From Candidatus Methylomirabilis limnetica (GTDB taxonomy: Bacteria > Methylomirabilota > Methylomirabilia > Methylomirabilales > Methylomirabilaceae): 32,000 nucleotides of DNA. Under the pieces are notes generated by a model that was given only the letters and a program-made list of their open reading frames with translations, was not told where the DNA came from and did no database searches. Position numbers and translations under genes: made by a program. The DNA lies in contig NZ_NVQC01000026.1 in NCBI RefSeq assembly GCF_003044035.1, positions 30,001 to 62,000 of the forward strand. The letters are read 5' to 3'. This document shows, piece after piece, positions 11,946-15,263 of this stretch (position 1 is its first letter; every line of letters starts with the position of its first letter).

Positions 11946-11957
11946 TTTCTCCTCAGG
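11946..11957. repeat. Left copy of the 12-bp direct repeat tttctcctcagg (putative target-site duplication)
   Basis: Identical 12-mer at 12681-12692. The bases immediately outside both copies differ. Confidence 0.75.
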
Positions 11958-12680
11958 TTGCGGATTCAGAATTCAGAATTCAGAATTCAGAATCCAGAAT
12001 CCTACTACTGACTCCTGCCTCCTGCCTCCTGACTACTGCCTCCTGACTCCTGCCTCCTGACTCCTGCCTCCTGCCTCCTGACTACTGCCTCCTGCCTCCT
12101 GCCTCCTGACTACTGCCTCCTGACTCCTGCCTCCTGACTCCTGCCTCCTGCCTCCTGAATTTTGAATTCAGGAGTCAGAATTCCGGATGGTGCGCGAATA
12201 GGCTTCAAGCAGTTTGCTGACTTCTTCAAGCAACGGTATCAATTTGGAAACATCGCCGTAATCAAGGTCCATGGTGAGAATCAAATAGTATCGGGATTCT
12301 TCGAGGGAACCTTGTGCGATGTTGTAAAAGCGGAGTTTGTCTTCTGTTCCGCGTTTCTTGAATCCTTCCGCAATGTTTGCCGCAACGGAGACGGCCGCGC
12401 GTCGAAATTGAGACGACAGACCATAGGCCTCAGTTCGCGGGAATGTCCAGGACAAACGATAGGCCGCAAGTACAAACTGGTGGGCCTTTTGCCACACCAC
12501 CAAGTCCTCAAAGCGCGTCGCCGGCGACCTCATGCTGACTCCTCAATTTTGAATCCAGAATTCAGAATTCAGAATTCAGCCTCCTGACTCCTGACTCCTG
12601 CCTCCTGACTCCTGACTCCTGACTCCTGCCTCCTGACTCCTGACTCCTGACTACTGCCTCCTGCCTCCTGCCTCCTGAAT
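11958..12680 (-). mobile_element. Four-helix-bundle gene cassette flanked by compound heptamer arrays
   Basis: Same-sense arrays (gaattca)4-5 + (cctcctg/actcctg/actactg)n lie at 11958-12167 and 12534-12680 on either side of ORF 12168-12533. The block is bracketed by the 12-bp direct repeat. In-silico removal restores an ATGA kinase/regulator overlap. Confidence 0.7.
12168..12533 (-). CDS. Four-helix-bundle protein (23S rRNA intervening-sequence protein / Avd-like family)
   Basis: 121 aa. FEDLVVWQKAHQFVLAAYRLS, GLSSQFRRAAVSVAANIAEGF and AQGSLEESRYYLIL are the hallmark helices of this family. gaggag lies 6 nt upstream of the ATG. Confidence 0.85.
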   Translation of the reverse strand: MRSPATRFEDLVVWQKAHQFVLAAYRLSWTFPRTEAYGLSSQFRRAAVSVAANIAEGFKKRGTEDKLRFYNIAQGSLEESRYYLILTMDLDYGDVSKLIPLLEEVSKLLEAYSRTIRNSDS

Positions 12681-15263
12681 TTTCTCCTCAGGAAGCGTGA
12701 ACCAGAACAGCGCGCCGCCATCGGGCGCGGACTCGATGCCGATGTCCCCGCCATGGCGCTCGACGATGCGCTTGCAGATCGCGAGGCCGATGCCGGTCCC
12801 CGGATACTCGCGCCGCGTGTGCAATCGTTTGAAAATCACGAAAAGCTGCGCGCGGTACTCGGGCGCGATACCGATGCCGTTGTCCGTGACCGAGAAGCGC
12901 CACCACCCGGCCTCGCGCGCCGCTGCCACGCGCACCCGCGGCGCCCGGTCCTTGCAGAACTTGAGCGCGTTGCCGATCAGGTTCTGGAACAACTGCGCGA
13001 GTTGCGTGCGGTCCGCCATCACCCTGGGCAGCGGCTGCGCATCTATTTCGGCGCCGGTTTCGGCGATCCGGGTGGCGAGCAGATCGAGCGCCCCCTTGAG
13101 CGCAGCCGCGCTATCCACGGGGTCCAGCGTCGCGCCCCGGGTGCTGACGCGCGAATAGGCCAGAATGCCCTGGATCAGGGCCTGCATGCGCAGCGCCCCG
13201 TCCACCGCGAAGGCCATGAATTCGCGCGTGTCGGCATCGAGCTTGCCGGCGAGGCGCTTGTCCAGAAGTTGAACGTAGCCGACCACCATGCGCAGCGGCT
13301 CCTGCAGGTCGTGCGAGGCGACGTAGGCGAACTGCTCCAGGTCGGCGTTGGAGCGCGCCAGGTCGCGGGCTGTGATAGCGAGCGCTCTTCTGCGCGCGGC
13401 GACCTCGGCGGCCAGCGCGCGCTGCTGGCGCGAGATCAGCGCCACCACTGCAATGCCGCCAAGGAGCAGGACGGCGACCAGGCCGGTCGTCAGCCACAGC
13501 ACTTCCTGCCCCGGCGCCAACACCTCCGCGATATCCGTTTTGGCAACCAGCAGCCAGGGCGAGTCCGGCACCTTGAGAACGCTGGCGAGCACCGGCACCC
13601 CGCGGTAGTCCGCGCCCGCGACGATGCCTTCGCGCCCCAGCACAGCCATCACCGAGGGCGTTTCGGTGTTTGACGCGGGAATGCGCAGCGACAGCGCGGT
13701 GTTGTCGCGGAACCTCAGTTCATTCAGGAACAGCACGTCGTCGCCGTCGCGGCGTACCAGCAGGGTTTCCGAGCTGCGATCGGGGACCGGCCAACGCCTG
13801 ATGTACGGGTAGAGATACGTCGCCGGATCCATTTGCAGCAGCAGGGTTCCCAGCGCCCGGCGGCTGGCCGATGCCTCGACAATCGGCACCAGCAGCGTCA
13901 GGTAGATCCGCTGGTCATGCTCGTTGCGGTAGAAATCCTGCAACCCCACCTCGCCCGAGCGCAGCAGTTCGGCCGCGCGCCGCGCTACCGTGGCGCTGAT
14001 GGGCACGCTGGAATCCGGCGCGGACATGCGCACGGCGCCTTGCGCGTCCAGCAGCACGACGCGGTCGTAATGCGGGTTCGCCGCGAATTTGTCCAGCCAC
14101 GCGCGCAATCCAGCCCGGGCTTGCGCGTCGCCCGGATGATCGAGGGCGCGCTGCACGAGCGCCGCGAAGTCGGCGTTCCGGCTAAAAATGGAAGCATCGG
14201 CCAGGCGCTCCTTGCGATACGCCACCAGTTCGCTGCGTTTGAGTTCTGCTATGGCGGTCAACTTCTGCTCGGCGTCCCTGCGAACATCCTGATCGTGGCG
14301 CTGGAAATACAGATACCCGGCGGCGATGAGTCCTGCGGCGACGAACATCATCACCAGCACCACCGAACGCGAAGCGCGCTGGCTTGCCGCGTCGCCCTCG
14401 CCGGCGGCCCCGCTTCGCAATGCGGTGAGCAAATACAGCCCCGCGCCGAGCGCCGCGAAAGCCAGACTGGTCGTGAGAGCGGGCGGAATGAATTTCCCGC
14501 CATAGAGCACGGGCGTCCCGAAGAGATAGCTGAGCAGGAATACGGTGCTGGCCAAAATGACAAGGCAGGCCAGCACAAAACCCGTCGTCGCCTTCCACGG
14601 CCGATCGGGCGACGAGCCGAGTGAGGCGAGCAGCGACCCGCCCGCCAGCACGAAGCACAGCGCCGTCAGCGGCGACATATGCCCGACCGGCGCGCCGTTC
14701 AAGGTTTGCGCGATGGCGAAGCCGAGGCGCTCTGCCGGCAGCGCCATGCCGAGCAGAGACAGGACCAGCAACAGCAGGGCGACCAGCGCGCCGGCCGAGC
14801 CAATGGCCATGCCGATACGATACGCGCCGCGGCCAAGTGGCGTGCCGGCGCAGAAGAACACCGCGGCGCCAAAAAGCAGGAACAGCAGCGCGGTGCTCGG
14901 CGCCATCGGAATCCAGCCCGGCCCCAGGCTGGTGAGAAGGGGAAACTCCAGTATCCAGCCAAGCAGGGCGATGAATCCGAAACCGGCCGCAGTCGTTGCG
15001 CATGCCCGGACGAGCCCGTTCGTCGCGCGTTTCTTGTTTTCTTCGCTCGTATTTACGTACGGGTTGCGAGTGGGCGGAACGAGCTCATCCACCAGCTTCA
15101 TCGCGAGGCCGCGACCGACGCGGCGGACGTCAGGCTTGCTTGCTTGCTTGCGCAAGATTTTTTCCATATTGCGTACGAACACTTTACGGGTTCTCGTCCA
15201 CTCTTTGCGTCGGACTTCGCTGCGCGCCTTACAGGGGAGCACCTTGTGGCATCTCCTCCGCAT
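12651..15263 (-). CDS. Membrane-bound sensor histidine kinase
   Basis: Multi-helix hydrophobic N-terminal region followed by an extracytoplasmic/sensor region. HisKA FAYVASHDLQEPLRMV; HATPase NLIGNALKF...DNGIGI...GTGIGLAICKRIVERHGG. The start is uncertain: in-frame ATGs also occur at 15167 and 15101. The last 9 residues (IQEAGGRRQ) are encoded by the heptamer array. Confidence 0.8.
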   Translation of the reverse strand: MRRRCHKVLPCKARSEVRRKEWTRTRKVFVRNMEKILRKQASKPDVRRVGRGLAMKLVDELVPPTRNPYVNTSEENKKRATNGLVRACATTAAGFGFIALLGWILEFPLLTSLGPGWIPMAPSTALLFLLFGAAVFFCAGTPLGRGAYRIGMAIGSAGALVALLLLVLSLLGMALPAERLGFAIAQTLNGAPVGHMSPLTALCFVLAGGSLLASLGSSPDRPWKATTGFVLACLVILASTVFLLSYLFGTPVLYGGKFIPPALTTSLAFAALGAGLYLLTALRSGAAGEGDAASQRASRSVVLVMMFVAAGLIAAGYLYFQRHDQDVRRDAEQKLTAIAELKRSELVAYRKERLADASIFSRNADFAALVQRALDHPGDAQARAGLRAWLDKFAANPHYDRVVLLDAQGAVRMSAPDSSVPISATVARRAAELLRSGEVGLQDFYRNEHDQRIYLTLLVPIVEASASRRALGTLLLQMDPATYLYPYIRRWPVPDRSSETLLVRRDGDDVLFLNELRFRDNTALSLRIPASNTETPSVMAVLGREGIVAGADYRGVPVLASVLKVPDSPWLLVAKTDIAEVLAPGQEVLWLTTGLVAVLLLGGIAVVALISRQQRALAAEVAARRRALAITARDLARSNADLEQFAYVASHDLQEPLRMVVGYVQLLDKRLAGKLDADTREFMAFAVDGALRMQALIQGILAYSRVSTRGATLDPVDSAAALKGALDLLATRIAETGAEIDAQPLPRVMADRTQLAQLFQNLIGNALKFCKDRAPRVRVAAAREAGWWRFSVTDNGIGIAPEYRAQLFVIFKRLHTRREYPGTGIGLAICKRIVERHGGDIGIESAPDGGALFWFTLPEEKIQEAGGRRQ
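12681..12692. repeat. Right copy of the 12-bp direct repeat tttctcctcagg
   Basis: Identical to 11946-11957. It lies inside the last codons of the kinase ORF (..LPEEK). Confidence 0.75.

Follow-up and report, generated by a model that had tools for sequence, protein, structure and literature searches.

A heptamer-array cassette carrying a four-helix-bundle gene at a translationally coupled kinase/regulator junction of Candidatus Methylomirabilis limnetica

Intervening sequences (IVS) of 23S rRNA genes that encode an S23p protein are known from Leptospira, Coxiella burnetii and others. The IVS of C. burnetii, a 428-nt element excised by RNase III, carries its S23p open reading frame (ORF) in the loop of a stem; before the start codon stand two or three tandem heptamers (GACAGAT), whose number differs between strains (PMC4990558). 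The same protein family occurs in insertions in 16S and 23S rRNA of the candidate phyla radiation (CPR) (10.1101/2024.02.27.582315). The S23p-encoding 23S rRNA IVS is the nearest described relative of the element analyzed here, a 723-bp block between a sensor histidine kinase gene and a CheY-like regulator gene of Candidatus Methylomirabilis limnetica, in which a four-helix-bundle protein gene stands between two compound heptamer arrays. The block lies in a stretch of 32,000 nucleotides (contig NZ_NVQC01000026.1, positions 30,001 to 62,000), hereafter the window; its regulator, four-helix-bundle protein and neighbouring proteins agree exactly with NCBI records of this NC10 bacterium. An earlier reading made from the letters of this DNA (the sequence-only reading) knew of no described element of such architecture, a statement that falls with the C. 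burnetii IVS and its S23p ORF behind two or three tandem heptamers (PMC4990558). We consider it probable (roughly 0.65) that the block is a non-autonomous, horizontally spread cassette of the same element family as the S23p-encoding 23S IVS, resident in an mRNA operon.

The footprint of the insertion is the clearest part of the evidence. A perfect direct repeat, TTTCTCCTCAGG, stands at 11946-11957 and 12681-12692, with exactly 723 bp between the copies, just where the sequence-only reading had placed it. Allowing up to one mismatch, the window holds just these two copies of the 12-mer, against a chance expectation of 0.16. Among 229 fetched loci (referred to below by L numbers) it is found only in copies of the same locus and in 0 of 215 others, more than 80 other cassettes included, so that the repeat is locus-specific and not part of the array consensus; the sequence-only reading had named the latter as the outcome that would undo it. 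The motif aatttt ends each array module (12158-12163, 12545-12550 and 12678-12683), and the AAA/TTT at the inner edge of the repeat copy that lies upstream when read in gene sense (12681-12683) coincides with it. Because of this overlap the true duplication is 9-12 bp. Removing the block and one repeat copy in silico gives a kinase ending FWFTLPEEKLP*, equal in length to the tails of its relatives, with the TGA overlapping the ATG of the regulator (ATGA); the coupled ending FTLPEEKLP-TGA that had been predicted is thereby reproduced.

The predicted ancestral arrangement exists in relatives. The best full-length relatives of the kinase, at 71%, 71% and 63% identity, all lack the insert, and it is from orthologues in this 63-71% range that empty sites are known (L012, L013-L015 and L016). 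Their kinases end FWFTLPEETSA*, EEASI* or EENKT*, each with ATGA, a 4-nt stop/start overlap with the regulator. Synteny is kept as well: the kinase, a regulator of 149-150 aa and a downstream gene of ~860 aa follow one another wherever the locus is long enough. At the repeat position the native orthologue sequence is CCGGAGGAGACA, CCGGAGGAGGCA or CCCGAGGAGAAC, and the comparison shows that the duplicated 12-mer, CCTGAGGAGAAA on the minus strand, is itself native: it encodes P-E-E-K of the kinase and the GAGGAG of the regulator. Three orthologous loci without the block and with the predicted ATGA make the insertion lineage-specific. The central proposal of the sequence-only reading, that a discrete block was inserted where kinase and regulator are translationally coupled, is thus confirmed. 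The cassette occupies the same site in a strain variant (98% identity in the four-helix-bundle protein), with one substitution in one repeat copy (TCTGAGGAGAAA), so the insertion is older than the split of the strains.

Three units make up the block when it is read in gene sense: a module (CAGGAGK)14(CTGAATT)4; a core of caaaatt, GAGGAGTCAGC, ATG, the ORF and ATTCTGA-CTCCTGA-ATT; and a module caaaatt-(CAGGAGK)21-AGG-(ATTCTGR)5-atccgcaa. The compound arrays that had been read on either side of the ORF are all recovered by Tandem Repeats Finder (TRF), at 11964-12000 (ATTCAGA x5.3), 12008-12157 (period 7, x21.4), 12551-12579 (GAATTCA x4.1) and 12581-12678 (period 7, x14.0). A perfect AGGAGG recurs every 7 nt within them, and even the last codons of the ORF (NSDS*) are the heptamers ATTCTGA CTCCTGA. 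The kinase reads nine codons into the upstream array and ends at the TAG of a CAGTAGT variant unit (...FWFTLPEEKIQEAGGRRQ*). Both this array-encoded tail, IQEAGGRRQ, and the ribosome-binding site that the repeat re-creates for the regulator had been pointed out before and are plain in the sequence. GC content is 0.48-0.59 along the cassette versus 0.62-0.72 in the flanks, 8-19 points lower.

The 121-aa product is the only ORF of the cassette with a family match, and no transposase accompanies it. It scores far above the curated cut-offs of PF05635 (23S_rRNA_IVP; E 4e-33, 114.2 bits, cut-off 33.8) and TIGR02436 ('four helix bundle protein'; 107.9 bits, cut-off 24), which settles the assignment that the sequence-only reading had given to ORF 12168-12533 (minus strand). 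An AlphaFold (AF2) model with a predicted local distance difference test score (pLDDT) of 89.4 has helices at residues 8-28, 36-58, 63-89 and 98-119. Foldseek matches this predicted model best to 2GSC (XCC0516; template modelling (TM) score 0.82, root-mean-square deviation 1.4 Å), next to 2RLD (BT_0352) and then to Avd, the accessory protein of diversity-generating retroelements (DGR; 4DWL/8UB7, TM about 0.75); sequence search too retrieves 2GSC and 2RLD as matches in the PDB. To our knowledge, the PF05635/TIGR02436 family has after 30 years no known function outside the Avd of DGRs. Its conserved motif is GxxRxxxSxxxNxxE (Zhang & Ye 2013, PMC3936711). The core RxxxSxxxNxxE is present as RAAVSVAANIAE (R-AAV-S-VAA-N-IA-E), and S49, N53 and E56 are invariant across 30 homologues; the leading G at the published spacing is not seen in the 121-aa protein.

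Related cassettes are widespread. At E<=1e-3 the protein matches 18,481 cluster representatives (50% identity clusters), and there are thousands of close relatives, many 78-86% identical, chiefly on short contigs. The family statistics that follow are drawn from the 80 best genome loci, whose homologues are 63-83% identical. They come from 13 or more phyla, and their host groups include Acidobacteriota, Verrucomicrobiota, Kiritimatiellia, Lentisphaerae, Elusimicrobia, Desulfobacterota, Cyanobacteria, Nitrospirota, Bacteroidota, Balneolaceae, Ignavibacteriota, Chloroflexi, Planctomycetes (Scalindua), Peptococcaceae and others. Within 500 bp of the ORF, 68 of the 80 loci have a period-7 array upstream, 73 have one downstream and 63 have both; the arrays cover 20.5% of bases up to 150 bp from the ORF versus 0.63% beyond 400 bp, a 32-fold enrichment. 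The usual arrangement is inverted, with TCAGAAT/CAGGAGT/CAGAAGT upstream and ATTCTGA/ACTCCTG/CTGACTC downstream, and the downstream array begins about 17 nt ahead of the stop codon. Units vary among loci, and the two units of one locus co-vary: compared with the reverse complement of its downstream partner, the upstream unit stands at a mean distance of 1.19; permuted loci average 1.85, and 0 of 2000 permutations attain the observed 1.19. The duplex of the two flanks averages -47.4 kcal/mol versus -27.1 with shuffled partners. A typical cassette is about 420 nt long; the 723 bp of the window copy are the longest seen. A metagenome scan for the module-start 18-mer GRATTCAAAATTSAGGAG gave 120 hits, ~100 of them chance-like and 20 beside heptamer arrays, and 0 of the 120 near a four-helix-bundle gene.

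These cassettes ride in operons. Both neighbours lie on the strand of the cassette in 56 of the 74 loci where both could be called, and where the neighbours share a strand the cassette agrees with it in 56 of 59 (binomial against 0.5, about 6e-14). The stop codon before the cassette and the start codon after it are mostly separated from it by anything from a few nt to a few tens. Hosts confirmed by Pfam are Mur ligase followed by Glycos_transf_4 (MraY-type), PheS|PheT, KaiB|KaiB and histidine kinase|NtrC-type regulator (L042). Another kinase/regulator junction is occupied in L224 (2250-2850), by a cassette with an 83%-identical protein placed right after ...FHFTLPEA; it has an imperfect repeat, GAAAGAAG/GAAAGGAAG, and its reconstructed empty site again has the ATGA overlap. 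The two junctions, L224 and L042, could reflect either a target preference or the mere abundance of such gene pairs. At both of these histidine kinase/response regulator junctions, in other organisms, the kinase reads into the upstream array. Cassettes with differing arrays follow near-identical KaiB genes in L019 (Geobacteraceae) and L021 (Syntrophaceae), and a second KaiB comes after the cassette in L019. Eighteen genes of this family inside cas operons, for example between cmr3 and cmr2, have been read as Cas-associated (Zhang & Ye, PMC3936711). The operon habit described here suggests that the 23S_rRNA_IVP genes of cas operons may be passengers.

Base composition and divergence speak to the age and route of these insertions. 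Across the 80 loci ORF GC follows host GC (r = 0.94, slope 0.82) at a level about 7 points lower, and this tracking makes most cassettes long-term residents. The window ORF, at 0.516 versus 0.666 in the flanks, is 15 points lower, where the same regression predicts about 0.57 for a long-resident cassette. Nonsynonymous differences among the four-helix-bundle genes (pN 0.10-0.22) are lower than synonymous ones (pS 0.29-0.86), which indicates purifying selection on the protein. Most pairs are saturated at synonymous sites, except that the difference to the Geobacteraceae and Kiritimatiellia cassettes is just 0.29-0.35, far below that between such phyla's own genes; this points to recent horizontal transfer across phyla. 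As to a carrier, no phage homologues of the protein were found, PADLOC defence models gave no match, and plasmid matches are nearly all to large cyanobacterial plasmids; none of these searches suggests a vector.

How is the gene expressed from within the operon? A promoter search of the gene strand found none in the arrays flanking the ORF, and its sole match is weak (9 of 12) and lies inside the ORF at 12449-12420. No terminator-like sites were found on that strand in the cassette. Lacking a convincing promoter or terminator of its own and co-oriented with its operon, the cassette is most likely transcribed by read-through. The outer arrays are direct repeats as DNA, yet as RNA their CAGGAGK units pair with AUUCUGR units, in helices of 6 bp with one G·U pair that are broken at every seventh base. 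The predicted folds are accordingly strand-specific, as G·U-dependent pairing predicts: -48.9 kcal/mol for the sense versus -15.4 for the antisense strand of the upstream module, -54.3 versus -17.4 for the downstream module and -258.8 versus -188.6 for the whole block. Such predicted sense-only folding argues for a structure selected in the operon transcript rather than in DNA. The leader AGGAGUCAG (12535-12543) is perfectly complementary to CUGACUCCU (12170-12178, inside the 3' end of the ORF) and would form a short stem enclosing the ORF; the in silico duplex of the two ORF flanks reaches -56.9 kcal/mol. A scan of 11400-13200 against Rfam returned no known RNA family. The idea of the sequence-only reading that the block acts as an mRNA-level intervening sequence thus gains support, in silico only, from the sense-only hairpins, the lack of a promoter or terminator in the arrays and the co-orientation seen across the family.

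Every long ORF of the window that was scanned is a housekeeping gene; none encodes a reverse transcriptase, a transposase or an integrase, and in this the 32-kb scan agrees with the sequence-only reading. The trans-acting machinery that it had called for has a candidate in an IS66-type transposase, for relatives of the cassette and not demonstrably for this copy. One subset of cassettes (L018, L020, L022, L027, L069, L225, L229) ends in GTAACTACTCAGG...CCTGAGTAGTTAC, with 8-bp duplications where the repeats are preserved (e.g. L022, L229). In L225, an 86%-identical relative of the window protein with these termini is separated by 8 nt from the right end of an IS66-family element of about 2.6 kb, which has the same termini and comprises a DruA-like ORF and a DDE_Tnp_IS66 transposase. 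In L227-L229 this IS66-family element, flanked by the 8-bp duplication CGGATCGG, is nested inside a heptamer cassette, and the host cassette in L229 has an 8-bp duplication of its own, GATGAGAC. ISDge4 of Deinococcus geothermalis (IS66 family, ISBst12 group), with the termini GTGACTACTCAGCA/GTAACTGCTCAGCA, was observed to transpose and to leave an 8-bp duplication in doing so (PMC12898284). Cassettes with such terminal inverted repeats are, judging by their ends, probably non-autonomous derivatives moved by an ISBst12-group IS66-family transposase.

The IS66-family element regularly has a 212-291-aa PF14236 (DruA) ORF upstream of its transposase (L226-L229, L225), and this transposase, mostly carried on contigs of 2-3 kb, keeps 75-93% identity across many phyla. 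Two further connections were considered and rejected. The native target at 11941-11961 (minus strand CAACCTGAGGAGAAAC) matches the IS66-type right terminus CTACCTGAGTAGTTAC at 12 of 16 positions; Campbell-type integration through this likeness was rejected because no left terminus follows the upstream repeat copy, where one would be expected. Heptamer arrays as subterminal transposase-binding repeats were rejected as the main explanation, since the IS66-family element is free of arrays and the arrays of the window pair as sense RNA only.

Together, these results suggest a course of events. The cassette entered the M. limnetica lineage at the last codons of the kinase, which are also the Shine-Dalgarno region of the coupled regulator, and 9-12 bp were duplicated, so that one copy keeps P-E-E-K of the kinase and the other the ribosome-binding site of the regulator. 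Its anatomy and the family statistics suggest that the ORF depends on read-through for its transcription and on a GAGGAG site of its own for translation. In the sense RNA the CAGGAGK arm of each array would fold onto the AUUCUGR arm in G·U-containing helices and, with the ORF held in a short perfect stem, give a structured RNA that, by analogy with the rRNA elements, is probably processed by nucleases and insulates the element from its neighbours. Recombination between the flanking direct arrays may delete the ORF and leave solo arrays behind. Movement would need a factor in trans, for GTAACTACTCAGG-type relatives probably the ISBst12-group IS66-family transposase.

Several observations weigh against this account. 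Within the species, a metagenome scan did not find the exact 25-mer of the predicted empty site. Flanking repeats of at least 8 bp occur in 9 of 76 loci versus 4% of controls, a modest excess, and most insertions would seem to be old or to have been made without a preserved footprint. Clear duplications measure 13 bp (L091), 8 bp (L066, L047/L043, L063, L022), 8-9 bp (L224) and 12 bp (window), and with lengths so varied no single mechanism is established. At the ends of 11946-12692 the GTAACTACTCAGG motif is absent at up to two mismatches, and the 9-12-bp duplication is not the 8 bp of IS66-type miniature inverted-repeat transposable elements (MITEs). The fold of the whole cassette is only modestly more stable than 20 dinucleotide shuffles (z = -2.5). 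Stems in the 80 other loci are Watson-Crick, with -47.4 kcal/mol in sense and -46.6 in antisense, and inverted repeats acting at the DNA level fit them equally well. The solo arrays come from contigs assembled from short reads, and with a 35-nt identical stretch shared by the arrays a collapse artefact is conceivable.

Could the arrays have come first and the gene second? The locus is polymorphic. Independent assemblies of the same species have a shorter downstream array (L002) or a shorter upstream array (L102); in L101 and L103 the downstream module is tandemly duplicated and the repeat has one mismatch; and in L005 and L006 a single compound array, without the ORF, stands between both repeat copies. 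The differences between these assemblies, which stem from different samples and strains, show that array length changes quickly and that modules are duplicated. At most 35 identical nt are common to the two arrays, and the junction in L006 is absent from the full-length allele; solo arrays are probably real alleles. They fit either deletion of the ORF through array recombination or a history in which a compound array was inserted or expanded, making the 12-bp duplication, and the ORF arrived later when its own short heptamer flanks recombined homologously with the resident array. Arrays would then be landing pads, and solo-array alleles ancestral rather than deletion products. Beyond the occurrence of such alleles with both repeat copies in the same population, this history is favoured by the 20-bp direct repeat that the ORF core has of its own, by the position of that core between two complete modules and by the duplication of modules apart from the ORF; units flanking cassettes (AGGAGTCAG, ATTCTGA) are identical to array units, and ORF-less inverted arrays occupy other intergenic sites here, positionally conserved in M. 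oxyfera and M. lanthanidiphila. However, no allele with an empty site plus the ORF and no intermediate was found, the ORF in the 80 other loci is usually accompanied just by its own short arrays, without a large resident one, and the order of events cannot be read from present sequences. We regard this history as unlikely, if the most serious of the alternatives.

Alternatively, the protein and its AGGAGG arrays might be a domesticated module that serves the two-component operon by tuning the kinase:regulator ratio, whether through uncoupling of translation, sequestration of ribosomes on tandem Shine-Dalgarno motifs or RNA binding by the protein. The regular AGGAGG motifs and the occupation of kinase|regulator junctions in two other organisms (L224, L042) would suit such a role, as would purifying selection; the latter is equally expected, however, of a selfish element's own factor. 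Sister lineages do without the cassette, ORF-less alleles exist in the same population, and the cassette also sits in unrelated operons (pheST, Mur ligase/MraY-type, kaiB, cas), so that any function would not be specific to signalling. Domestication is for these reasons improbable.

The Avd / 23S-IVS label of the sequence-only reading invites a further possibility, a remnant or satellite of a DGR whose protein acts as Avd. The label holds at the level of the superfamily: the protein has the fold of Avd and distant sequence homology to it (NF033474, E 1.5e-4; phrog_3206, E 1.5e-3). As an Avd equivalog it fails, with 22 bits against the NF033474 cut-off of 80; its nearest solved relatives, 2GSC and 2RLD, are not DGR proteins, and no reverse transcriptase occurs among the long ORFs scanned in the 32 kb, template and variable repeats not having been searched explicitly. 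A DGR origin is very improbable. That repeats mis-joined an unrelated gene into the operon is negligibly likely: the arrays are of low complexity and many homologues lie on very short contigs, but the order kinase-cassette-regulator recurs in independent ENA, JGI, Logan and NCBI assemblies, some of them with contigs of about 70 kb, and in the 98%-identical strain variant.

The reading of the block as a horizontally spread cassette can be taken one step further, tentatively: four-helix-bundle/heptamer cassettes may be a pan-bacterial class of operon-riding selfish elements, with the 23S IVS as the rRNA special case and the arrays as an RNA device. In that event the arrays would supply stops and Shine-Dalgarno motifs in every frame while the stems are excised or insulate, and the element would be tolerated between translationally coupled genes. 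The Avd-like protein would be its own nucleic-acid-binding factor for maintenance or movement. If movement is RNA-based, which is possible, this could explain the variable 8-13-bp duplications in copies without transposon ends.

As passengers of a mobile operon cassette, PF05635/TIGR02436 genes would have an explanation for their patchy distribution across phyla and for their presence in rRNA, cas, Mur ligase/MraY-type, pheST and two-component operons. Annotation by association, such as that of 23S_rRNA_IVP genes as CRISPR-associated (PMC3936711), would then call for caution, and the puzzle of intergenic heptamer arrays in cyanobacteria and Beggiatoaceae would be tied to a concrete element. 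The locus would also be a natural insert between translationally coupled genes that preserves both, of potential use in operon engineering, and would provide defined alleles of the filled, empty and solo-array types, all in one population of an uncultured methanotroph, with which movement of the element could be studied. It should interest those who work on mobile elements, operon architecture and the 'S23/Avd-like' protein family. The literature search, with most subscription journals outside it, turned up no account of the cassette architecture outside rRNA, and none of cassettes in mRNA operons, of co-varying inverted arrays around them, of their insertion footprints or of a link to IS66-type ends.

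Table 1. Positions of the cassette, its host genes and two ORF-less elements in the window.
Feature	Position	Strand	Basis or remark
CheY-like response-regulator gene, downstream host gene	11491..11940	-	PF00072, E 1.7e-19; NCBI annotation: response regulator
Direct-repeat copy beside the regulator, minus-strand CCTGAGGAGAAA	11946..11957		source of the regulator's GAGGAG ribosome-binding site
Downstream array module, gene sense caaaatt, (CAGGAGG/CAGGAGT/CAGTAGT) x21, (ATTCTGA/ATTCTGG) x5, atccgcaa	11958..12167	-	TRF, unit listing
Internal 20-bp direct repeat, copy 1, ctcct[g/c]aattttgaat[t/c]cag, at the edge of the ORF core	12152..12171		sequence
Four-helix-bundle protein gene, 121 aa	12168..12533	-	PF05635/TIGR02436, predicted fold
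ORF leader with GAGGAG (12539-12544), 5 nt before ATG	12534..12550	-	sequence
Internal 20-bp direct repeat, copy 2	12539..12558		sequence
Upstream array module, gene sense (CAGGAGG/CAGGAGT/CAGTAGT) x14, then (CTGAATT) x4	12551..12680	-	TRF
Array-encoded kinase tail IQEAGGRRQ, TAG stop from CAGTAGT variant unit	12651..12680	-	ORF listing
Direct-repeat copy within the kinase's last native codons (P-E-E-K)	12681..12692		sequence
Sensor histidine kinase, upstream host gene	12651..15263	-	HisKA and HATPase_c domains
ORF-less MITE-like element in the gap GFO_IDH-like / CDP-alcohol phosphatidyltransferase	18599-18760 (18591-18768 with duplication)		termini GTAACTACTCAGGTAG...CCTTGTAGTTAT
Second copy of the 18.6-kb element, opposite orientation, in the gap YajQ (DUF520) / GAF-GGDEF	30465-30593		

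Elsewhere in the window, the GTAACTACTCAGG motif occurs at up to two mismatches at the ends of the ORF-less elements (18600, 30466 and 30581) and once, apparently by chance, at 2332. The element at 18599-18760 has inverted (AGGCTGA)3/(TCAGCCT)3 arrays and a perfect 8-bp duplication, CACACTGC; at this intergenic site different heptamer arrays are present in M. oxyfera and M. lanthanidiphila. For the copy at 30465-30593, M. oxyfera provides an empty site, and its flanks, CATCCATC and CAGTCATC, have the look of an 8-bp duplication that has decayed. Blastx of the two elements for remnants of the four-helix-bundle ORF gave only weak hits (E 0.2 or worse). Inverted heptamer arrays of AGGGTAT and ACCCTAA types surround short centres at 19912-20026, 22263-22291 and 25377-25442, in successive gaps of a minus-strand gene cluster at 18.8-27 kb; at least the first and third of these gaps have similar arrays in M. 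oxyfera and M. lanthanidiphila, with other lengths and centres. A separate repeat family of 8-9-mers (CATTGCGT and CTATAGCGT types) is seen at 8069-8164 and 23697-23793, as an inverted pair between PmbA-like and HAD genes and as units that recur in a 25-nt-period repeat downstream of an MlaC gene. An LPG_synthase_TM gene separates the PmbA-like and HAD genes in M. oxyfera (L097, 7523-8611) but is absent in M. limnetica (window ~23700-23800); in M. lanthanidiphila just a 34-aa ORF is called there.

Set beside described systems, the cassette shares features with several. IS66-family (ISBst12-group) MITEs have the termini and 8-bp duplications of one cassette subset and of the two ORF-less elements of the window, whereas the main cassette is without such termini and has a duplication of 9-12 bp. 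Classical MITEs have no conserved ORF, whereas the main cassette has a gene under purifying selection, and the IS66-family insertion sequence itself is without heptamer arrays. The Correia elements of Neisseria and the enterobacterial ERIC/IRU and REP/BIME elements are likewise small inserts between co-transcribed genes that form RNA hairpins, some of which are cut by RNase III or RNase E with effects on the stability of flanking cistrons; unlike the cassette they are non-coding, are not made of heptamer arrays and are confined to narrow taxa. The TAACTGA arrays of Beggiatoaceae, Cyanobacteria and Bacteroidetes are also period-7, intergenic, near start codons and patchily spread across phyla, and horizontal spread has been suspected for them with 'no mechanism evident' (PMC4679880). 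Their units differ, and that work makes no link to four-helix-bundle genes, inverted pairing or insertion footprints (PMC4679880).

The closest likeness is to the 23S rRNA IVS, from which the window element differs in several respects. It lies between the kinase and regulator genes of an mRNA operon and not within a 23S rRNA helix; its arrays are far longer (14-21 units) and compound, with predicted hairpins that rely on G·U pairing; empty sites and a target duplication can be demonstrated for it; and its protein is conserved, whereas that of C. burnetii was judged by its authors to be decaying and probably unexpressed (PMC4990558). The likenesses lie in the plan of the two elements. Both encode a PF05635 protein, at about the same length when the typical cassette (~420 nt) is set against the 428 nt of the Coxiella IVS. 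In both, complementary flanks enclose the ORF (in silico here) and tandem heptamers of strain-variable copy number stand directly before the start codon, and both lie inside a transcribed unit and rely on the transcription of their host.

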